Source: Candidatus Saccharimonadota bacterium (GTDB lineage: Bacteria > Patescibacteriota > Gracilibacteria > Absconditabacterales > Absconditicoccaceae). Taken from it: a DNA stretch of 32,000 nt. Position 1 is the first letter of the stretch. Every line of letters starts with the position of its first letter. Made by a program: the position numbers and the translations under genes. The stretch is from the NCBI GenBank assembly GCA_000503875.1, contig CP006913.1, positions 390,001-422,000 of the forward strand. The letters run 5' to 3'. Below the pieces are notes generated by a model that was not told where the DNA came from, did no database searches, and worked only from the letters and a program-made list of their open reading frames with translations. Of this stretch, positions 1,066-13,777 are shown in pieces.

Positions 1066-2832
1066 TTATTGTTTCACAATCTTGAAAGTACGAGATTGTG
1101 TTTTGTCCTGTGTTGTTTTTATGATATAAGTTCCAGGACTGAACCCACTCATATCGATACTGTGTTTTTGTTGGCTATACCCCTTATAAAGGAGATTTCC
1201 AATGAGGTTAAATATTTCCACAGTACCATTTTTTTCGAGTTCTATTGTGCAGAGAGAAATTACAGGATTTGGATAGATTGTAATCTTTCCATTTTCTATA
1301 TCTTCTACTCCTGTGACGGTAACTTGTTCGCTATCAGAGTTTTTACAACCATGATTGTCGGTAACCGTAACTGAATAAGTACCAGAAGCACTTACTACAA
1401 TAGTTTGTGTTATTGCAGTCGTAGACCATAGATATTCAGAAAATCCTGTACCTGCATCTAACGTTGCATTTCCATTACCCGAAGTTTGTGTGATATTAAC
1501 CGTAGGTAGAGGATTAACAACAACGACAACTTGATCAGCAATAACACCACAAGAACCGTTAACAGTAGCGGTATAAGTTTTGGTTTCAGAAGGAGTAAAA
1601 GGCACGCCATCTACAACTCCGTTATCCCAACTTAATGTTCCGTTAGTATAAGAAGCGGTTAAGGTAACCTGTCCACCTTGGCAAACAGAAGCATCAGCTC
1701 CAGCATTAACCGTAGGTAGAGGATTAACAACAACGACAACTTGATCAGCAATAACACCACAAGAACCGTTAACAGTAGCGGTATAAGTTTTGGTTTCAGA
1801 AGGAGTAAAAGGCACGCCATCTACAACTCCGTTATCCCAACTTAATGTTCCGTTAGTATAAGAAGCGGTTAAGGTAACCTGTCCACCTTGGCAAACAGAA
1901 GCATCAGCTCCAGCATTAACCGTAGGTAGAGGATTAACAGTAATTACAACTTCATCACTAGCAAAACAATCATCTTTAGCAACACTAACTGAATAAGTAT
2001 CAGCAGAACCTATCTCGATAGTCTGAGTAGTTTGTCCATCAGGCCCCCAAAGATAAGTAGCTCCAATAACTCCAGCATCGAGTATTGTAGTAGAACCTTG
2101 GCAAATTGCTCTATCAGCACCAAGATTAACATTAAAAATTGTCTCTGTAATTACTACAGTACCATTCATCGTAATACTTCCACCAGCATTAGTAGCAACA
2201 CAGGTATAGCTTCCAGCAGAAATCCCAGTCCACTCAAGAGTGGAACCAGTAATACCAGTTTTTGCGCTACCTACATTAGCATTGCTAGCATCTTTTAACT
2301 GATAACTTGCACCAGTCTCAGAATTAGAAAGTAATATAGATTTTCCACCAGTGCCTTGACAATAAGCACCTGAACCAGTAAGATTATAAACAGTAGGTTT
2401 AGGTGGATTTTCCCATAATACAATAAAATTAAGTTCATTATAAGGAGGGACTACAAAATCTCCAACATGGACAGTTTGAAAATACTCTCCTTTGCTATTT
2501 TTTTGATTAATAGCTACTACATTAGTTTTTTGTATAGTTACCTGAAAAGTAAAAAGAGCAATATATTCTCCTTCAAAATCCCATCGATAACTACTAGGGC
2601 ATGATTGATTTGGTGGGCAGAAATCAGTATTGCCTACCTGGAAAATTCCATGGTTAAGTAAATAGTTCATTTTAACAGTATCGCATAATGCAAGATCAGT
2701 AGTTATGTAAAGATCATACGCTTTAGTTACCGTTGACTCGCTATTTACATAGATTGTTTGTTTTTGGGCATTACTATACTTCGTACCCAATATCACAATT
2801 AGCAAAATTAAAAAAAGTTTGAGTGCTTTCAT
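1066..2832 (-). CDS. secreted repeat-rich surface protein with a Bacteroidetes-type T9SS (Por) C-terminal sorting domain
   Basis: Uninterrupted 588-aa ORF (ATG at 2830-2832, TAA at 1066-1068). Signal peptide MKALKLFLILLIVILGTKYSNAQ. Two identical 70-aa Ig-like repeats (VNPLPTVNAGADASVCQGGQVTL...). The C-terminus KITIYPNPVISLCTIELEKNGTVEIFNLIGNLLYKG...PGTYIIKT...FKIVKQ matches the TIGR04183-type sorting-domain pattern as I remember it. By my count there are 56 Gly codons and none is TGA. Confidence 0.85.
   Translation of the reverse strand: MKALKLFLILLIVILGTKYSNAQKQTIYVNSESTVTKAYDLYITTDLALCDTVKMNYLLNHGIFQVGNTDFCPPNQSCPSSYRWDFEGEYIALFTFQVTIQKTNVVAINQKNSKGEYFQTVHVGDFVVPPYNELNFIVLWENPPKPTVYNLTGSGAYCQGTGGKSILLSNSETGASYQLKDASNANVGSAKTGITGSTLEWTGISAGSYTCVATNAGGSITMNGTVVITETIFNVNLGADRAICQGSTTILDAGVIGATYLWGPDGQTTQTIEIGSADTYSVSVAKDDCFASDEVVITVNPLPTVNAGADASVCQGGQVTLTASYTNGTLSWDNGVVDGVPFTPSETKTYTATVNGSCGVIADQVVVVVNPLPTVNAGADASVCQGGQVTLTASYTNGTLSWDNGVVDGVPFTPSETKTYTATVNGSCGVIADQVVVVVNPLPTVNITQTSGNGNATLDAGTGFSEYLWSTTAITQTIVVSASGTYSVTVTDNHGCKNSDSEQVTVTGVEDIENGKITIYPNPVISLCTIELEKNGTVEIFNLIGNLLYKGYSQQKHSIDMSGFSPGTYIIKTTQDKTQSRTFKIVKQ
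1501..1920. repeat. perfect 2 x 210-bp tandem duplication inside the T9SS-CTD gene. The repeat edge recurs at 1921-1940.
   Basis: 1501-1710 and 1711-1920 read identically by eye (cgtaggtagaggattaacaacaacgacaacttgatcagc...). Each encodes one 70-aa repeat. Confidence 0.9.
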
Positions 2833-3021
2833 ATTTTTATATTATTTTTTTGTTTTTAACTGAAAAAAATGTTAATTACCAACCTCAAAACAGATTCTAA
2901 TTATTTACCATAAAATGTCAATCTAAATATATAAGAAAGTATAGATTTCCTTGGTCAAAATCATACATCAGATTATAATTGTTTTATTGAATTTCCTTTT
3001 ACCTTGTATTATGCATGTATT

Positions 3022-5733
3022 ATGAACAACAAAACAAAATTTCTTAAATTTGGTATTGCAGTACTCTTGGGAGCAGGAGTTGTAGGTGGATTACTCTATG
3101 CCCAACTCAATATCCCTACAGATATTGATAATGCAGTAATGACTATTAAACAAATCAATATTACGTCGGATGGTCAAGCAACTACGCCCAAAATTGTTAT
3201 TGATGGTAGTGCATCAGATGGTAATTTTCTTAAAGTTGAATGAAGTATATTGATGGGAAGTATTACAGGATCTATTGGTCAAATAAATAAAGTATCAGGA
3301 GATAAATCAAGTATTCTTTGAGGAGTGAAAAATACGATAAATGGAGATTATTCGATAATTCCATGATGATCATATAATCAAGTGACAGGAACAGATTCTT
3401 ATGCTTTTGGAAATACAGTAAGAGTTAATGGTAGTCAATCATATGCAATTTGAAAATCTTTAATTTTGAATTGAAATGGTTCTTTTGTCTTTTCAGATGG
3501 AAAGCCATCAAATTTTACCGTTTCTAAAGATTGAGTTTTTATTGTAAAAGTTACTAACGGAGTAGGTATCAATACATGAGTAACAACTACAGGTTATGAC
3601 TTAACCGTTGCAGGTAGTGGTATCGTTTACGGTAACCTCAAAACAAACAATATGATAGCTGGAGCGTATTATTATGGATCAATAACTAGTGAAGATGATC
3701 AATACGAACTCAAATTAAGCCAATGGGAAGGAATAGGAAATATTTATTATAATTCATGATATGTAGGAATTGGAACCAATAATCCTACAGCACAACTCCA
3801 TGTAAATGGAACAACAATATTACAAGGGTTATCAACATCAACACAAACTACAGCTTTGGTTGTAGACGCCAATGGAAATGTAGGTACAAGAGCATTAAAC
3901 ACAGTAGCATTTAACGGATATACAGCGCCAGTAACATCAGTATCAGGAAGAACTGGAGCAGTAGTATTAACAAAAACAGATGTAGGATTGGCAAGCGTAG
4001 ACAATACAGCAGATATGGCTAAACCAGTTTCAACAGCGACACAAACAGCATTGAATCTCAAAGCAAATTTAGCAAATCCAGCCTTGACAGGGATACCAAC
4101 AGCACCAACAGCATCGACATGAACAAGTACAACTCAAATAGCAACAACAGAATTTGTAAAATTACAATGATATTTGACTACTGCTACAGCACCAGTAACA
4201 TCAGTAGCAGGAAAAGCTGGAGTAGTACTATTAACAAAGGCAGATGTAGGATTGGCAAATGTAGACAATACAGCAGATATGGCTAAACCAGTTTCAACAG
4301 CGACACAAACAGCATTGAATCTAAAAGCAAATCTAGCAAGTCCAGATTTGACAGGAATACCAACAGCACCAACAGCATCAATAGCAACAAACACAAATCA
4401 ACTAGCAACAACAAAATTTGTAAAAGATCAATGATATTTGACTATTGCTACAGAAGCAGATCCACAAGTGGGAACATTGACAAGTGGAAGATGGTGTACA
4501 ACAGATGGAACAACAGTAAATTGTGCAACAGTAGCACCAGTAACTACAGAAAGTGATCCACAAGTAGGAACACTAACTTCTGGTAAAATGTGTACAACAA
4601 ATGGAACAACGGTAAATTGTACGACAGATATTCCAGTAACTCCGACAAATTATGTAACAACAGATACAAATCAACCAGTAGCATGAATTAAAACATTTAG
4701 CAATAATACTATTTTCAACGGAAATGTAGGAATTTGAACAACAAGTCCTCAAAGTAAACTTCATATATTTGCACCATCACCAGTTCTTACATTAGAAGGA
4801 ACTGTTGATGATACCACAAAAATCAATTTTATTGATGATTGATCAGTTGTATGAGAACTTTCTGTTGATCGTAGTAGTGGTTTAACAAAACTTTGGACAA
4901 CAGAGCCTCTTTCTTTTTGATCAGCTAATGCGGAAAAAATGCGTATTTTACAAAATGGAAATGTAGGAATTTGAACAGCAAGTCCAGCAACAAAACTTCA
5001 TGTATATTGAGTAGATGGTTCATTCCCAGCTCGTATATCAAGTCCAGCTGGTTATATAGATATTGGACCATCAAATGCTTCGTGGGCACACATTTATACT
5101 GATAGACCAAATTTTATTTTTAATGCATGAGTCTACATTATAGGAGGAAAATTAAGTACATATGATACAGCTAGTCTACAATTACAAACAAATGGAACAA
5201 CAAGAATCTTCGCTGATAATACCAATGGTAATGTAGGAATTTGAACAACAACACCAGCAGCAAAACTTCATGTGGCATGATCAATTTGAGCTACTTCTTG
5301 GATTGGTGCGTGATGTGAGTGAGCTTGTGAATCATGAGGAGGATATTCTCTTTTGTACGCAGATGGAACAATTGTAGCAACAAGTTCAGTAACAGCAGCA
5401 GCATTCTACTATTCATCAGACATCACTCTCAAAAAAGATCTTACAAAAATTACAAATCCATTGGAAAAAATCATAGCATTAAATGGATATAATTTTACAT
5501 GGAAATCAAATGATAAAAAAGATATTTGAGTGGTTGCACAAGAAGTAGAAAAAGTATTTCCAGAAGCTGTTAAAGCAGATGCCAAAGGATTAAAATCAGT
5601 TGAATATGGAAACTTAGTTGCTCCAATTATCGAAGCAATCAAAGAATTATATACCAAATACCTAGATCAACAAACACAAATTTCCGAGCTAGAACAAAGA
5701 ATTGAAATATTAGAAAAGAATATAATTAAATAA
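3022..5733 (+). CDS. tail-fibre-like surface fibre protein (903 aa) with an N-terminal membrane anchor or signal and a C-terminal intramolecular-chaperone (peptidase S74-like) domain
   Basis: Single frame from ATG 3022 (alternative TTG 3004) to TAA 5731-5733, with dozens of in-frame TGA and no TAA/TAG; checked codon by codon. N-terminus MNNKTKFLKFGIAVLLGAGVVGGLLYA. Repeated NVGIGT(T/A)SP..KLH(V/I) motifs. Two 88-aa repeats contain GxxGAVVLTKxDVGLxxVDNTADMAKPVSTATQTALNLKA...TGIPTAPTA...TNQ(I/L)ATTxFV, a classic phage tail-fibre repeat. Confidence 0.85.
3922..4449. repeat. 2 x 264-bp tandem repeat encoding the tail-fibre repeat module
   Basis: 3922-4185 versus 4186-4449 are near-identical over long stretches (gatgtaggattggcaa..gtagacaatacagcagatatggctaaaccagtttcaacagcgacacaaacagcattgaatct). 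Confidence 0.85.
5413..5730 (+). other. peptidase S74-like intramolecular chaperone / autocleavage domain of the fibre protein
   Basis: SSDITLKKDLTKITNPLEKIIALNGYNFTWKSNDKKDIGVVAQEVEKVFPEAVKADAKGLKSVEYGNLVAPIIEAIKEL followed by a coiled-coil tail. This matches the S-D-x-x-x-K ... G(F/V)xAQEVxxVxPExV ... YxxLxxxxIxAIKEL pattern of endosialidase/tail-fibre chaperone domains. The predicted cleavage Ser-Asp is at 5416-5421. Confidence 0.8.
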
Positions 5734-5814: not shown

Positions 5815-8800
5815 ATGGGAAAGCTCAAAAAAACATGAATTATACTTGCTATATTTTGTATATCACAGATAATTTTTTCCGGTTTTGCTTTTGTATCTCC
5901 GATGTTAGTTATCAATAATACAGGGAATAATGCAAAAATACTTCCTATGAGAAAATGATGTCAACAGATAATCAATAATTGTGCTTATCCGATAGGAATA
6001 CTTATGTATCCTTCTTCAGCAACAAAATCATTTTTTGAAAACAAACCATCATGTGTAGTGTTGAGTGAGTGTGTAAAGACTATAAAATGTCCTGGTACAC
6101 TTCCTACAAATACAGAATGGAATACAAGTAGTAATTATGTACAAACATTTGATGGATTTAAATGGGTACCAACAAAAACTGCACATTATGATGCTACACC
6201 AGCATCAGATGATTGTAGATATGATTGTAAAACCAATTATTCATGGAACGGAACTAGTTGTATAGCGGATACAAGAACATATACATGTGCTGCAAAACCA
6301 ATAGGAACAGTGCGAAATACAGTAGGTAATTATTTACAAACATGGAATGGTACAACTCGAACACCATTAGATAGTACAACAAGTTATAGTACAACAGTAA
6401 GTACAAATTCTTGTAAATATAAATGTGATGTTTGATATAGATGGGATACTACAACTTCAAGTTGTATAAATACCTGTGCATTGCCATGGTGATGATGAAC
6501 AAAAACACATTGAGAAACAATAACAGCATATGATAAAACAAGTGGAACATGTACAACAAATAATTGTGCATCCGAAACACGTACATGTAATGGAGCGCTC
6601 TGAACATTTGATTGAACATATCAATATGCAAGTTGTACTCAAAACGCAAACACCCAAAGCTGTGTAATAGCAAACGGAGTAGGAACTCAATCATGTACAG
6701 CATGATCAACAAGTCGATGAACTTGTAATGTAGTAAGTTGTAACGCAGGATACCGTGCATCATGAAATACATGTGTAAATACATGCGCATTACCATGGTG
6801 AGGAACAATTACAAATGGACAATCAGTAACAGCATATGATAAAACGAGTGGAACATGTACAACAAATAATTGTGCATCAGAAACACGTACATGCAATGGA
6901 ACACTTTGAACATTAAATGGAACATATCAATATGCAAGTTGTACTCCAAACGCAAACACCCAAAGCTGTATAATAGCAAACGGAGTAGGAACTCAATCAT
7001 GTACAGCATGATCAACAAGTCGATGAACTTGTACTTTAGTAAGTTGTAACGCAGGATATCGTCCATTATGAAATACATGTATAAATACCTGTACATTACC
7101 ATGGTGATGAACAATTACAGATGGGCAACCAGTAACAGCATACGATAAAACAAGCGGAACATGTCCAACAAATAATTGTGCATCACAAATTCGTGTTTGT
7201 AACGGAACACTTTGAACATTAAATGGAACATATACGTATCAAAATTGTACAGCAAATGCAAATACGCAAAGCTGTACTGTTTCTAATGGTTGAGGAAATC
7301 AATCATGTGCAATATGATCAACAAGTCGATGATCATGTATAGTAAACCGATGTACTACAGATTATTATGATGATGGTTGAGCTAATGATTGTGTACATGT
7401 AGGAAATTGATATTATTCTAATAGTACATCAACAACAAGAACAGCATGTACAAATTATCCAGATACAGCAAGTCGTAATTATACATATACAAGTGCAGGA
7501 AATGGAACGAATAGTTGTACAGCAACATATACAGAATTATGTTGATTGGATTTATACGAGAATCCAATTGGAGTGTGTAGTGCAGTAGGAAACTGATATT
7601 TTTCACCAATAAACAATAATAGTAGAACATTATGTACAAATTATCCAGATACAGCAAGTCGTGATTATACATATACGAGTGATGGAAATGGAGCAAATAG
7701 TTGTACAGCAACATATACAGAACTATGTTGATTAGATTTATATGAAACATCAAATTGAGTGTGTAGTGCAGTAGGAAACTGATATTTTTCACCAATAAAT
7801 AATAATAGTAGAACATTATGTACAAACTATCCAGATACAGCAAGCCGTGATTATACATATACGAGTGATGGAAATGGAGCAAATAGTTGTACAGCAACAT
7901 ATACAGAACTATGTTGAGTAGATTTATATGAAACATCAAATTGAGTGTGTAGTGCAGTAGGAAACTGATATTTTTCACCAGCGAATAATAATAACAGAAC
8001 ATCATGTACAAATAAACCATCATACTCAACATATACAACTGATGGAAATGGAACAAATACTTGTTCACGAACTTGTGATACATGATATCACACAGAAGAT
8101 GGTGTTACTTGTATTTCAAATACGAAAACAACAAGTTGTACTGGGAAACCATTAGGAACGACATATTATACTGCAACAGATATAACACAAACATGGAATA
8201 CTAGCTTAAGTGCATGGCTTCCAAGTGCTGTAGCAACATACAGTACAACAGCAAGTACAACAGAATGTAGATACACCTGTGCAGCTTGATATCTTCGAAA
8301 TGGATCTTCATGTGTAGCGTGATGTAAAACTAATAGTGATTGTAGTTTATGAAAAATATGCCAATGATATGTAGCCCCTACTCGAAAATGTTTAGGAACT
8401 CAATTAAATAATTGATCTTGTAGTCAAGAGCCACTCCCATGATTTTGTGATAGTGAAGATTCTCCTTGTAGTACATATGATACATATTATGATTGTCAGG
8501 ATACGGATCGTTGTCATCTAGGAAAGCCTGGTATATGTAACCGAAATTGAACCTCTTGTATATGAATTACTAGTCAAACTACATGTAGTGCGACAGCATG
8601 ATGTTCAGTAAGTAATACATCATCAGAAGTATTTTGAACCTGTGTAACACCTACTCCTGTCTGTGGAAATGATATTGTAGAGATAGGGGAAACATGTGAT
8701 TGAGGAAGTCAATCATGTAGTATTGGAGGTGTAGCAGGAACTCAATTATGTAATAATACATGTAGTTGATATGGTACTTGTTTAGTAAGTCCATGTATAG

Positions 8801-9933
8801 CAAGTTATAATACAGATGTATGTTGATGATGTAAATGAAGTTGGACTATGTCAAGTTGTGATAATCGTGAATGTACTCCTGATGGTCTTGAAGATGCAAT
8901 ATGGAATTGTTCTTATGCTTGAATAACAAAACAATGTTATTCAGTATTAGGAGATCCATGTAATACATCAACATGTTTTACCTCTGGTACTCAAGTAAAA
9001 ACAGCAGATGGAATAAGTAAAAATATTGAAAATATTCAAATAGGAGACGAATTATTAGGTCAAGACGATCAAATAAATACTGTTATTGCATATGACCGTC
9101 CAAATCTTGGAGAAAGAAAACTTTATAGCATAAATAATGGACCATATTTTGTGACTCATGAACATCCATTTATGACTATATGATGATGGAAATCTATAAG
9201 TCCAGAAGCAACTCGAAGAGAAATGCCTAACTTTGAAATATTACCACTCAAAGTGGGAGATATTCTTATAAAAGAAAATAATGAAATTGAGTACATATGG
9301 AGTATCCAATCAACGACAGCAGATCCAGAAATACCATTATACAACTTTAAATTAGACGGAAATAATACTTATTATGCAAACGGATATTTAGTACACAATA
9401 AATTATATGATTGAGATGGTTGTACATTAAGTTCTCAATGTGCATGTGGATCTTGTGTTGGTTGAGTATGTTGTCCTACAGGAGGAGGCTGATGTTTCAA
9501 AGAATGAACACAAGTACGTTTACCAGATGGAACAACAACAGCTATAGAAAATATTCAAACAGGAAATATTGTATTATGATCAGAAAATACTCAAAACACA
9601 GTTCTCAAATTATTTAAAATCTGGAATAATAATTGGGATCTTTATGCAATAAATAATTCTGATTATTTTGTTACTGATACACATCCATTTATGACAACAG
9701 AAGGATGGAAATCATTGAATCCAGTATGATCTAGCAAAGAAAATCCAGGTATGATATTCTGACAACTTGAAATTGGTGATATACTTATAACAGAACAAGG
9801 AACAACTATTATATACTCATTAGAAAAAACAGCATATGCATGATATGTATATAATTTTAGATTAGATGGAAATAAAACATATTACGCAGATTGATATCTA
9901 GTACATAATGTAGAGATAAAATCTGTTGAATAA
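5815..9933 (+). CDS. giant secreted cysteine-rich repeat protein (1372 aa) ending in two tandem Hint (bacterial intein-like) domains
   Basis: One frame from ATG 5815 to TAA 9931-9933 with TGA = Gly; I walked the whole frame and found no TAA/TAG. N-terminal hydrophobic segment GIILAIFCISQIIFSGFAFV. Three ~102-aa repeats (CxLPWGG.I..G..V.AYDKTSGTC.TNNCAS..R.CNG.LG...). Four 62-aa repeats (VGNGYFSP.NNN.RT.CTNYPDTASR.YTYTS.GNG.NSCTATYTELCG.DLYE). One CGNDIVEIGETCD motif resembles the myxococcal Cys-rich repeat. Two Hint domains follow. Confidence 0.85.
6475..7395. repeat. 3 x ~306-309-bp coding tandem repeat (Cys-rich CxLPWGG module)
   Basis: Unit starts at 6475, 6784 and 7090 (tgtgcattgccatggtga / tgcgcattaccatggtga / tgtacattaccatggtga), with long near-identical stretches. 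Confidence 0.85.
7399..8142. repeat. 4 x 186-bp coding tandem repeat (VGNGYF...CTNYPDTASR module)
   Basis: Unit starts gtaggaaa(t/c)tgatat at 7399, 7585, 7771 and 7957. Copies 2 and 3 are almost identical. Confidence 0.85.
8974..9399 (+). other. Hint domain 1 (bacterial intein-like, 142 aa)
   Basis: Starts CFTSGTQVKTADG (block A Cys1), contains VTHEHPFMT (block B TxxH) and ends YYANGYLVHN (block G HN). The next residue is Lys, not Cys/Ser/Thr. Confidence 0.8.
9493..9909 (+). other. Hint domain 2 (139 aa), 31 aa downstream of Hint 1 in the same protein
   Basis: CFKEGTQVRLPDG ... VTDTHPFMT ... YYADGYLVHN, followed by only VEIKSVE and the stop. Confidence 0.8.
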
Positions 9934-12560: not shown

Positions 12561-13777
12561 ATTCTTGTCAAGGATCTTATGAATCAACATCTTTTTGGTG
12601 TGTATGAAAATCAATTCCTGATAGTTCTCCTCCATACGTTTGTATGAAGTCAGGTGAACCTTATCAATTAGTTCCAGCAGATTGATGTCCATCAGGTCGA
12701 AGTTTATGATTTATTCAATGATGATCTATTCTGTCTGTATCAGAAACTCTATGTCAGATTATAGACCAAACTGATTTTCAATTACCTAATTGTGAGTATA
12801 AATGTAATACATATACAACATCATCTACTTGTAATGCTAATTCATCATATTGTGATTGGGTATCAAGAAATAACTCATTATCTTGTTCTTCATTTAACCA
12901 AACAACATGTCAATCAACAAATGGTTGTGATTGGGTACCTTGAACACCAGTAACATTAGGAACTTGTACAACTCAAATATGTGGTAATGATATTAAAGAA
13001 TGAACAGAATTGTGTGATGGTTATGATCTTCAAATACCGTGTACTACGACTTTATGAAAAGTTTGAACAAAATACTGTAATAGTACCTGTAATTGATATA
13101 CTACTTGTGTAGCAGATCCAACACCACCATCATGATCAACTTGTGTCCCTAAAAATTGTTTTATAGCTGATACAAAAATTAAACTAGCTGACGGTAGCAC
13201 AAAGCCAATTCAAGAAATAACAACAAAAGATATCGTATATAGTGTATCATGAAAAAAGAATAAAGTAATATGAACATCAAAAAGATTGGATACGACACCA
13301 CTTTATGCATTTAACAATAGTAATCATTATTTTGTAACAGAGGCACATCCGTTTCTTACATTAGATGGATGGAAATCACTAAATCCAGACGCAACAAATC
13401 AAGAAAATCCATGATTGATGGTAACTAAATTATCTATATGAGATATATTAATCACAGAAAAATGAACTACCACATTATTTGCTATCGATTCTATCCCAAA
13501 CAAACAAGGAACATATGTATACAATATTACTGTAGAAAACACCCATGATTATTATGCTGATTGATATGCTGTTCATAATAAATTACAATGTTTAGATATT
13601 GGCTTATATCCATGTGATGGTTGAATGTATTGTGCTGATAATGCATCTCAATGTGAACAATGTCCTGTTGGACTATGTGATCCATGTACTAGTACTTCTC
13701 AATGTCCTGTAGATAGTTATTGTCATTCTATAAATAAAATGTGTCGACCGAGTAGCTGACCAGTTTGTGCATTATAA
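12194..13777 (+). CDS. secreted cysteine-rich protein (527 aa) with a Hint domain and a 65-aa Cys-rich C-terminal tail
   Basis: ATG 12194 to TAA 13775-13777, one frame with TGA = Gly. The first ~120 aa are near-identical to the 11210 gene. Contains a CGNDIKEGTELCD motif, a Hint domain and the tail KLQCLDIGLYPCDGGMYCADNASQCEQCPVGLCDPCTSTSQCPVDSYCHSINKMCRPSSGPVCAL. Confidence 0.85.
13157..13579 (+). other. Hint domain 4 (141 aa)
   Basis: CFIADTKIKLADG ... VTEAHPFLT ... YYADGYAVHN, followed by Lys. Confidence 0.8.

Follow-up and report, generated by a model that had tools for sequence, protein, structure and literature searches.

The attachment fibers closest to the protein described here are the MATs (mosaic adhesive trimers) of Bdellovibrio bacteriovorus, which number 21 and include an S74 subgroup, e.g., Bd3182 (Caulton et al. 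2024, PMC10769870). They combine a signal peptide, a conserved N-domain, and a trimeric fiber with an S74 tip (SDxxxK motif as defined in that study) or another tip; the fibers are surface exposed, and one of them binds prey glycans (PMC10769870). Among the MAT-like proteins that this study lists for other predators, none is from the CPR (PMC10769870). Those Absconditicoccaceae that have been studied are epibiotic predators or parasites, with a gap to the host of less than ~20 nm (PMC8080830, PMC13059738). How such ultrasmall CPR bacteria find and hold specific hosts is a question on which the present fiber bears. The Absconditabacteria literature names pili and giant proteins as attachment candidates, and in the literature that we searched there was no mention of phage-type fibers in this role. 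Here, we describe an SR1 (Absconditabacteria) gene whose product is probably a secreted, self-cleaving, trimeric cell-surface fiber, composed of adhesin and phage receptor-binding modules and serving in attachment to a host or prey.

The gene lies in a 32,000-nucleotide stretch of DNA (the window). Its reading frame is open only when TGA is read as glycine (code 25), which gives 903 amino acids (aa) counted from the ATG, with 27 in-frame TGA codons; translation with table 11 yields fragments of at most 88 aa each. The original prediction of a 903-aa protein written in the UGA = Gly code was thus confirmed. Its description of the gene as dense in TGA held per codon (79th percentile of the genome) but not as a share of glycine codons, 27.6% of which are TGA (46th percentile, average for the genome). 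The high number per codon arises because the protein is glycine rich (97th percentile), and we dropped the notion of an extra-dense TGA content. The GC content of the gene is unremarkable. The second glycine of the VGIG motif is TGA encoded in three of four loops (G572, G651, and G741), and G651 is aligned with a glycine of Bdellovibrio Bd2133. Because code 25 is also used by SR1 phages and prophages (PMC10746230, PMC13059738), it cannot distinguish host genes from phage genes, and the argument that a gene in the host code is not a phage gene was abandoned. In the public annotation of relatives, several of these genes are translated with TGA as Trp and named "tail fiber," a name that invites false prophage calls. 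The features of the gene and its immediate neighbors are listed in Table 1.

Table 1. Positions in the window of the fiber gene, its segments, and the adjacent genes
Feature	Residues	Positions	Strand	Remarks
588-aa protein with T9SS-type C-terminal sorting domain		1066..2832	-	Divergently transcribed neighbor
Fiber gene (903 aa + stop)		3022..5733	+	TGA = Gly reading, 27 TGA codons
Sec-type signal peptide	1-27	3022..3102	+	K-rich n-region, hydrophobic core
Lineage-specific leader	28-85	3103..3276	+	QLxIPTxIxNAxxTIKxIxLTxDG; conserved in family
UspA1/YadA-head-like left-handed beta-roll repeats	86-200	3277..3621	+	Pattern xSxIxGGxxNxIxG
Connector with first capping loop, YVGIGTNNPTAQLHV (3760-3804)	201-300	3622..3921	+	Motif reading, orthologue comparison
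Two 88-aa phage tail-fiber repeats	301-476	3922..4449	+	VDNTADMAKPVSTATQTALNLKANLA ... IPTAPTA ... ATTxFVK
Two 32-aa Cys-pair repeats	477-545	4450..4656	+	DPQVGTLTSGxxCTTxGTTVNC; tandem 96 bp x 1.9
Beta-helix shaft/tip	546-760	4657..5301	+	Three capping loops: 568-582, 647-661, 737-751
Gly/Cys-rich linker (CEGAC) up to the predicted cleavage site	761-798	5302..5415	+	Motif reading, orthologue comparison
Peptidase_S74 intramolecular chaperone	799-903	5416..5730	+	Pfam PF13884; C-terminal helix after dyad
1,372-aa secreted Cys-rich protein, two Hint domains		5815..9933	+	Downstream; first of array ending at 13777

A membrane anchor or signal had been proposed at the start of the protein, and a Sec-like N terminus is present: MNNKTKFLKFGIAVLLGAGVVGGLLYA, followed by QL, has a K-rich start, a hydrophobic core of 18 residues, and Ala at position -1. 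The segment satisfies a hydropathy rule (a rule-based reading, not a trained predictor), by which the fiber shares the signal peptide of MAT fibers. Cleavage is predicted after LYA and before QL; an uncleaved signal serving as an N-terminal anchor would also be compatible with these residues. A small residue or Ala at position -1, followed by Q or S, is kept in 12 family members. Apart from the signal, no cell-wall or membrane retention module was recognized in the fiber.

The segments that follow the signal are specific to the lineage at first and then adhesin-like. Residues 1 to 250 are common to only 5 proteins in a search of 5.8 billion clusters, and among 1.84 billion representatives, only a few cover the leader (residues 28 to 85). 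Within the family, the leader and N-terminal module are kept in 7 genera, fused to differing C termini. Residues 86 to 200 matched the UspA1 head (3PR7; E value of 2.8e-12, profile versus PDB) and, weakly, the Pfam family LbR_Ice_bind. They are also matched by 1,314 representative proteins, many of which carry YadA_head and S74. No viral match to the N-terminal module was found among viral contigs, phage records, and protein clusters.

The shaft and C-terminal modules all have phage homologues. The tail-fiber repeats, collar-like repeats, and C-terminal chaperone motifs named in the original prediction were all found in the protein, and profile searches matched both Peptidase_S74 and tail-fiber families. 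The tail-fiber repeats form a tandem of 264 bp x 2.0 (89% identical), with IPTAPTA at residues 358 to 364 and 446 to 452, ATTEFVK at 374 to 380, and ATTKFVK at 462 to 468. They match minor tail and tail-fiber genes in 654 phage records, and the whole protein matches 55 PHROG families, mostly tail fiber or minor tail. In the viral contig scan, matches were confined to the repeats (residues 316 to 477), and no phage record in our search covered 80% or more of the protein. The two repeats that follow place Cys pairs at residues 492/501 and 524/533, and such paired cysteines would fit an extracytoplasmic protein.

Four (N/Y)VGIGTxxPxxKLH(V/I) loops punctuate the fiber, the first at residues 247 to 261 and the other three in the beta-helix (Table 1). 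This beta-helix (residues 546 to 760) is a candidate receptor-binding region. It matches the Bdellovibrio MAT fibers Bd2133 (8OND; E value of 5e-6) and 8OJN (E value of 4e-5) in phmmer searches, and these two are the top single-sequence PDB matches of the fiber. A beta-helix in front of an S74 domain might alternatively act as a tailspike-like enzyme that cuts host capsule, O-antigen, or cell-wall polymer to clear a path to the cell, instead of only binding it. Endosialidase tailspikes were the first proteins in which S74 domains were recognized (Pfam calls the family "chaperone of endosialidase"), weak Foldseek neighbors of the fiber are beta-helix lyases and tailspikes (none significant), and the cluster ends with a gene for NAGPA. 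However, domain searches detected no catalytic domain or family in residues 546 to 798, and the region matches the non-enzymatic beta-helices of MAT fibers, so that we consider an enzymatic role quite unlikely.

The structure models added little. For the full-length AlphaFold2 (AF2) monomer, built from a very gappy alignment of 34 rows, the mean pLDDT was 44.9, with confident prediction only at residues 90 to 160 (pLDDT of 77 to 88) and at the S74 end; a helix at residues 866 to 902 appeared in this low-confidence model. The model of the N-terminal 274 aa reached a mean pLDDT of 45.7, and Foldseek searches of the PDB with the monomer models gave nothing below an E value of 1. Because the protein would be an intertwined trimer, poor monomer models were to be expected, and they were set aside.

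The C-terminal chaperone is well defined. PF13884 aligned to residues 799 to 851 over its full length (profile positions 1 to 58 of 58; E value of 1.9e-15; 57.3 bits versus a cutoff of 22). The SDxxxK dyad is intact as SDITLK (residues 799 to 804; S799 at 5416 to 5418 and K804 at 5431 to 5433), is followed by AQEVEKVFPE and then AIKEL, and aligns with SDRRIK of the phage long tail fiber tip 6F45. From these motifs, self-cleavage by Ser799/Lys804 and trimer formation would be expected. The S74 domain is present in a single copy in the genome.

The fiber gene heads a Cys-rich/Hint array on the same strand, as had been proposed, and is separated from the 1,372-aa Cys-rich gene by a gap of 81 bp in which no terminator-like site was found. 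Promoter-like sites at the locus were not above chance. A gene for NAGPA (phosphodiester glycosidase) closes the cluster, and the flanks of the fiber gene consist of housekeeping genes. The prediction that the gene lies outside any prophage was upheld: no phage structural genes, whether of a prophage or of a tailocin, occur within ~35 kb on either side, and across the closed genome (1.18 Mb; 97.75% complete) there was no match to the sheath (PF04984), baseplate-J (PF04865), Terminase_6N (PF03237), HK97-capsid (PF05065), or portal (PF04860) models. The only tyrosine recombinases in the genome sit more than 450 kb from the fiber gene.

These results bear on the possibility that the gene is a prophage or tailocin leftover, or that it still supplies the fiber of a phage-like particle whose genes lie elsewhere in the genome. 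Phage homology along the shaft and C terminus, the use of code 25 by SR1 phages, and the differences in length and middle modules between species are what such a gene could display. They are outweighed by the absence of the five hallmark families and the distance of the recombinases, the host-typical codon use and GC content, the lack of a phage record covering at least 80% of the protein, the absence of viral matches to the N-terminal module, and a chromosomal position fixed across the genus (see below). The protein also carries a Sec signal. Virion fibers are assembled in the cytoplasm, and a Sec signal is not expected on them. We regard a prophage or tailocin leftover, or a particle fiber, as highly improbable. 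The fiber gene is a cellular gene and not part of a virion or tailocin, as the original prediction had it; this conclusion is argued from the Sec signal, from synteny, and from the absence of phage gene matches, and not from code 25. The housekeeping flanks, the paired cysteines, and the single S74 domain of the genome point the same way. The word "domesticated" in that prediction implies a direction of transfer, which we infer.

Matches to the fiber were found in 7 of 8 same-genus genomes. In the eighth (G003), a contig ends ~370 bp from the NAGPA gene, at the expected fiber start, and its absence was accordingly not counted as gene loss. Five same-genus assemblies (G000, G002, G004, G005, and G006) share the site, from the IF-2 side to NAGPA-NusA-GltX, and one metagenomic contig (P0009) has the fiber at this same chromosomal site. 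The order of fiber gene and Cys-rich gene recurs in G002, G004, G006, the P0009 contig, and a genome of another genus (G117), where the pair occupies a different chromosomal site; a CTD-type gene also adjoins the fiber in the P0009 contig and G117. The proposed synteny therefore stands for the site but only in part for the Hint genes, since the fiber of G005 has none next to it and the link to the array is not obligatory.

Orthologues range from 572 to 1,483 aa. Their S74 domains are 56 to 82% identical and their N-terminal modules mostly 33 to 72%, whereas the tip (residues 546 to 760) is among the least conserved modules (6 to 33%). Across seven genera, the N-terminal module continues into either an S74 end or a Cys-rich end. 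Conserved ends with a swapped shaft and tip fit the mosaic expected of a recognition fiber. Beyond the family, S74-ended proteins occur in ~30% of the genomes sampled in the class, nearly always with a Sec signal, and in ~21% of those sampled in the phylum, where a signal was present in 11 of 16, a figure that is indicative only because the longest ORF per locus was taken to stand for the S74 ORF.

The variable tip also bears on what the fiber is for. Secretion and fiber features would apply equally to a surface fiber that serves the cell's own needs (envelope or S-layer structure, kin adhesion or daughter-cell stacking, or abiotic attachment) with no host recognition; Vampirococcus makes stacks of sticky cells, and a single copy per genome differs from the 21 MATs of the broad-range predator Bdellovibrio. 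On the other hand, the putative tip belongs to the parts of the protein that change fastest, whereas neighboring housekeeping genes are 85 to 95% identical, and the solved relatives with such a tip bind glycans on the surface of foreign cells. Self-binding accounts for this rapid change less well than does pursuit of a target that is foreign and itself changing, and we judge a purely self-serving fiber fairly unlikely. A decoy or shield against phages, acting by receptor masking or phage fiber mimicry, would account for the resemblance to phage receptor-binding proteins, and phage pressure often shapes variable surface genes. The neighbors, however, are secreted adhesin-like proteins, and we know of no precedent for S74 fibers in defense; a defensive role seems extremely improbable to us.

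Our preferred reading, a secreted attachment fiber, suggests the following sequence of events. Sec would export the preprotein by means of its N-terminal signal. Outside the membrane, the C-terminal S74 chaperone would bring three chains into register, as known for the family. Once the beta-helix had folded, Ser799/Lys804 would cut before Ser799, freeing the 105-aa chaperone and exposing the distal tip. The SR1-specific leader and the UspA1/YadA-like repeats may hold the ~770-aa fiber on the cell's own envelope, where a signal left uncleaved would equally serve as a membrane anchor. This orientation of the fiber is provisional, because the UspA1-type head is the distal, adhesive end in autotransporter adhesins. 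The variable shaft and tip (residues 546 to 798) may attach to a structure on the host or prey surface, probably a glycan; this step, and with it the function as an adhesin, is suggested by analogy with MAT and phage fibers and by the parasitic lifestyle of the studied relatives. Module shuffling, together with gain and loss of tandem repeats, could retune length and specificity between species.

As a candidate for host attachment, the fiber is compact, with a predictable maturation at S799/K804, one conserved end, and one variable end, and it has relatives across a family that includes the few cultivable predators. We offer only tentatively the wider proposal that CPR/Patescibacteria episymbionts in general recognize their hosts by secreted, S74-ended fibers assembled from the receptor-binding modules of phages, with exchangeable tips that set the host. 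If this were true, tip modules could reveal which hosts an uncultured CPR bacterium can use, much as with phages, and the recurrent Cys-rich/Hint and CTD-type partners would point to a gene cluster devoted to attachment. MAT-like fibers are a known kind of protein; what is new is a MAT-like member in the CPR. The protein is not unique there, because signal-bearing S74 proteins are common in the class. Carrying the MAT concept over to a phylum far removed from Bdellovibrio suggests that bacteria-on-bacteria lifestyles repeatedly reuse phage receptor-binding parts.

Three known systems resemble the fiber in different ways. With trimeric autotransporter adhesins (UspA1, 3PR7/3NTN; Yersinia YadA), it shares N-terminal repeats homologous to the Moraxella UspA1 head. 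Unlike them, it lacks a C-terminal outer-membrane anchor barrel (a domain search gave no match to YadA_anchor, and the C terminus is the S74 domain, which would drive trimerization instead), and its head repeats adjoin the signal peptide, with the variable tip at the opposite end. With phage fibers (K1F endosialidase, the T5 L-shaped fiber pb1, and 6F45), it shares an S74 Ser-Lys dyad of equal spacing and tail-fiber repeats common to hundreds of phages. It differs from them in its Sec signal, in having no virion-attachment N terminus, in the extent of similarity, as no phage protein matches 80% or more of it, and in its genome, where none of the five phage hallmark families was matched. From the MATs of Bdellovibrio, the SR1 fiber differs in being present once per genome rather than 21 times, and in belonging to a CPR bacterium with a 1.18-Mb genome and code 25. 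The CPR group is not known to have an outer membrane. The N-terminal part of the SR1 fiber has UspA1/YadA-like repeats, whereas the MAT N-domain (~130 aa, beta-rich) is reportedly without a homologue in the PDB, a comparison made from the published description. Surface exposure of MATs, and glycan binding by one of them, have been demonstrated in Bdellovibrio; for the SR1 fiber, both are predicted. Both kinds of fiber are encoded by chromosomal genes of bacteria living on other bacteria, and the SR1 fiber has a signal, a conserved N-terminal part, and a long fiber (~900 to 1,000 aa). Its beta-helix units carry the VGxGxxxPxxxL capping loop (V-G-G/N-pi-x-x-P-x-x-x-L in MATs) and match Bd2133 and 8OJN, and its C-terminal S74 domain with SDxxxK is that of the MAT S74 subgroup. 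As among MATs, the SR1 family is a mosaic in which the N-terminal end is constant and the tips, S74 and non-S74, are exchangeable.

The fibre gene (window positions 3022-5733, forward strand) was evaluated in the genetic code of its own genome, a closed sequence of 1.18 Mb (97.75% complete; the window is its positions 390001-422000). TGA encodes glycine in this genome: long frames are open under table 25 only, and table 11 splits the frame at 3004-5733 into pieces of ≤88 aa. Translation from the ATG at 3022 yields 903 aa, and the 27 in-frame TGA codons coincide with glycines demanded by protein families. In three of the four loops, the codon for the second Gly of VGIG is TGA (G572, G651, and G741; Bd2133 of Bdellovibrio has a Gly aligned to G651), as are codons of several GG pairs in the head repeats. 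The original prediction that the gene is dense in TGA-Gly codons thus held for their number but not for their usage; the TGA share of its Gly codons (27.6%) lies only at the 46th percentile of 791 genes, and the apparent density arises solely because the protein is Gly rich (97th percentile). Its GC content (34%) is unremarkable. Four public-database relatives (P0003, P0004, P0008, and P0009) have Trp where the fibre gene has TGA-Gly (e.g., WSIWATNWIGAGCEW versus GSIGATSWIGAGCEG), and P0009 was confirmed to result from translation with TGA=W only. Evidently, the sources had read TGA as Trp rather than by code 25, and the glycine motifs were corrupted as a result.

Modules of the 903-aa fibre protein
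Module	Residues	Details
Sec-type signal	1-27	MNNKTKFLKFGIAVLLGAGVVGGLLYA / QL
Leader segment	28-85	Near-exclusive to the lineage
Left-handed beta-roll repeats	86-200	Homologous to Moraxella UspA1 head (3PR7, E 2.8e-12, profile)
Connector	201-300	First capping loop
Phage tail-fibre repeats, 2 x 88 aa	301-476	264-bp tandem duplication, 89% identical
32-aa repeats (n = 2)	477-545	One Cys pair per repeat
Beta-helix units	546-760	Three further NVGIGTxxPxxKLHV loops
Gly/Cys linker	761-798	
Peptidase_S74 domain	799-903	E 1.9e-15; catalytic motif S799-D-I-T-L-K804; long terminal helix

The tail-fibre, collar-like, and S74 motifs were all found where they had been predicted, HMM searches recovered the S74 domain and tail-fibre repeats, and the predicted N-terminal signal or anchor appears from the sequence to be a Sec-type signal. 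By both sequence and motif, the protein belongs to the S74 family. Monomer AF2 models were of poor quality, and a Foldseek search with them was uninformative. The gene itself contains two tandem duplications (window 3921-4453, 264 bp x 2.0, 89%; 4448-4627, 96 bp x 1.9, 81%), and such internal duplication is a simple route to length variation among orthologues.

The fibre gene is not a phage part, given the lack of matches to five hallmark families, its flanks, its codon use, and its secretion signal. Sheath, baseplate J, Terminase_6N, HK97 capsid, and portal families had no match anywhere in the closed genome, and the only two tyrosine recombinases are both >450 kb from the gene. Over ~35 kb on each side, beyond the 20 kb proposed for inspection, the flanks carry IF-2, Pth, SHMT, PheT, NusA, GltX, GyrB, RpoD, and LepA, in agreement with the predicted location outside any prophage. 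No other S74 domain occurs in the genome. Virion fibres assembled in the cytoplasm are not known to carry a secretion signal. The argument that use of the host's code speaks against phage origin was dropped, because SR1 phages and prophages likewise use code 25 (PMC10746230, PMC13059738) and the code is therefore of no help. Promoter scans at the locus remained at chance level.

Matches to the fibre were detected in seven of eight same-genus genomes; in the eighth (G003), the contig ends ~370 bp from the NAGPA gene, precisely at the expected start of the fibre gene. A 124-kb metagenomic contig and four of these genomes (G006, G005, G002, and G004) have the gene in the same place, between Pth/IF-2 and NAGPA-NusA-GltX. 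Cys-rich/Hint genes usually follow it, as predicted; because no Hint genes adjoin the fibre in G005, this link is not obligatory. Housekeeping neighbours are 85 to 95% identical between the fibre's genome and G006. Among fibre orthologues, identity was 56 to 82% in the S74 domain, mostly 33 to 72% in the N-terminal modules, and only 6 to 33% in the tip region, with total lengths of 572 to 1,483 aa. P0004 shares the N terminus, linker, and S74 domain with the fibre but has a different beta-helix, a sequence pattern that indicates module exchange. The gene is thus stable in position yet mosaic. From the Candidatus Absconditabacteria label of a same-genus orthologue, the fibre's organism is an SR1 bacterium. 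Public labels within this genus are inconsistent: "uncultured Candidatus Peribacteria bacterium" for G007 and G008 (loci L077 and L079) and Candidatus Absconditabacteria for G006 (L078).

With residues 1 to 250 as the query, only five proteins were found among 5.8 billion clusters. When 1.84 billion representatives were scanned in full with HMMER, the first ~60 mature residues proved rare, and the head repeats were common (1,314 matches, many also S74 ended). The N-module was present in 16 of 40 genomes of the organism's own family; in seven genera, it continues either into S74 or into Cys-rich ends, short or long (296 to 1,146 aa). In genus g35, signal, leader, and head repeats are fused to long Cys-rich C termini that replace shaft and S74 (L052 1952-5392 in G076, 1,146 aa, 50 Cys; L053 8108-10384 in G269, 758 aa, 35 Cys); short forms (L035, L038, and L039; 296 to 339 aa) end in small 6-Cys tails. 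The Cys-rich parts of both showed no detectable homology to the window's 1,372-aa protein at E 1e-6. The 588-aa product of window 1066-2832 (reverse strand), whose gene adjoins the fibre gene, carries a C-terminal sorting domain (CTD; TIGR04183, E 1.7e-12) of the T9SS type, in the style of Bacteroidota; this phylum is not known to have T9SS. CTD-type genes also adjoin the fibre homologue in the metagenomic contig, where a divergent one precedes it, and in genus g37, where CTD-type gene, fibre, and a 1,261-aa Cys-rich protein form a trio at another chromosomal site. This recurrence points to a functional cluster, not merely a conserved position.

Of the genomes sampled, 89 of 301 in the class (60 of 188 genera) and 85 of 401 in the phylum contained S74 domains. 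In the class, 17 of the 18 complete S74 proteins that were sampled had signal-like N termini, by a crude rule that 31% of all genes in the fibre's genome pass; a looser sample from the phylum gave 11 of 16 and contained one signal-less protein with a phage-style N terminus. From these counts and tallies, the fibre gene is one example of a widespread S74 class, apparently little discussed so far. The phylum's S74 genes are not all cellular: a 799-aa protein in another Patescibacteria genome (L102, G624:C7:57300-60800) starts with MPTKRLPIPGQDNGNWGQILNDYL, a phage-style N terminus without a signal, and by its sequence may be a true prophage fibre. Some S74 domains of the class and phylum sit in very long open frames. 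In the phylum sample, such frames reach 8,840 and 7,471 aa (e.g., G369:C7:586971-587153 and G671:C32:44219-44398) in Patescibacteria genomes of ~1 to 1.5 Mb and would encode giant proteins with the phage-type chaperone at their end. At L050 (G087:C1:104000-123999), tandem S74-ended proteins (1,249 and 561 aa) lie directly upstream of a 3,704-aa giant secreted protein and adjoin a Cys-rich CTD-like gene.

Signal, module order, intact dyad, mosaic conservation, and cellular context can all be read from the sequence. The original observation (ORF, motifs, S74, and context) is confirmed, and its reading as a domesticated fibre that may serve as a surface adhesin, a function proposed by analogy, is supported by the signal, stable position, absence of matches to five phage hallmark families, and MAT (mosaic adhesive trimer) relatives. 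From family knowledge, the S74 chaperone would drive trimerisation, with cleavage before S799; analogy and lifestyle suggest that the conserved N-terminal end would retain the fibre on the cell and the variable tip would bind a host-surface glycan. Because UspA1-type heads are the adhesive end in autotransporter adhesins, either end could be adhesive. Scaling roughly from the Bd3182 model (922 aa, ~55 nm; PMC10769870), the mature fibre could measure some 45 nm, which would be long enough to cross the <20-nm gap reported between an Absconditicoccaceae epibiont and its host (PMC13059738).

Our literature search found no paper in which S74 or tail-fibre-type adhesins are connected with CPR bacteria. 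Among solved structures, the best single-sequence matches were Bd2133 (8OND) and 8OJN, two fibres of Bdellovibrio bacteriovorus that aligned through the capping-loop beta-helix; 6F45, an S74-bearing tip of a phage long tail fibre, was matched too. Caulton et al. 2024 (PMC10769870) described 21 MAT fibres in B. bacteriovorus: a signal peptide and a conserved N-domain are followed by a trimeric shaft with the capping-loop motif, which terminates in S74 or in other tips. The S74 end (SDxxxK) is self-cleaving, and a Ser-to-Ala change blocks cleavage; the fibres are exposed at the surface, and one binds prey glycans (PMC10769870). MAT-like proteins were tabulated there in other predators of several phyla, with no CPR bacterium (PMC10769870). 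Because the SR1 N-module contains UspA1-like repeats, N-domain homology to the MATs may not hold. The SR1 fibre resembles them in its MAT-type shaft with the same loop motif, its N-terminal signal, and the mosaic organisation of its family.
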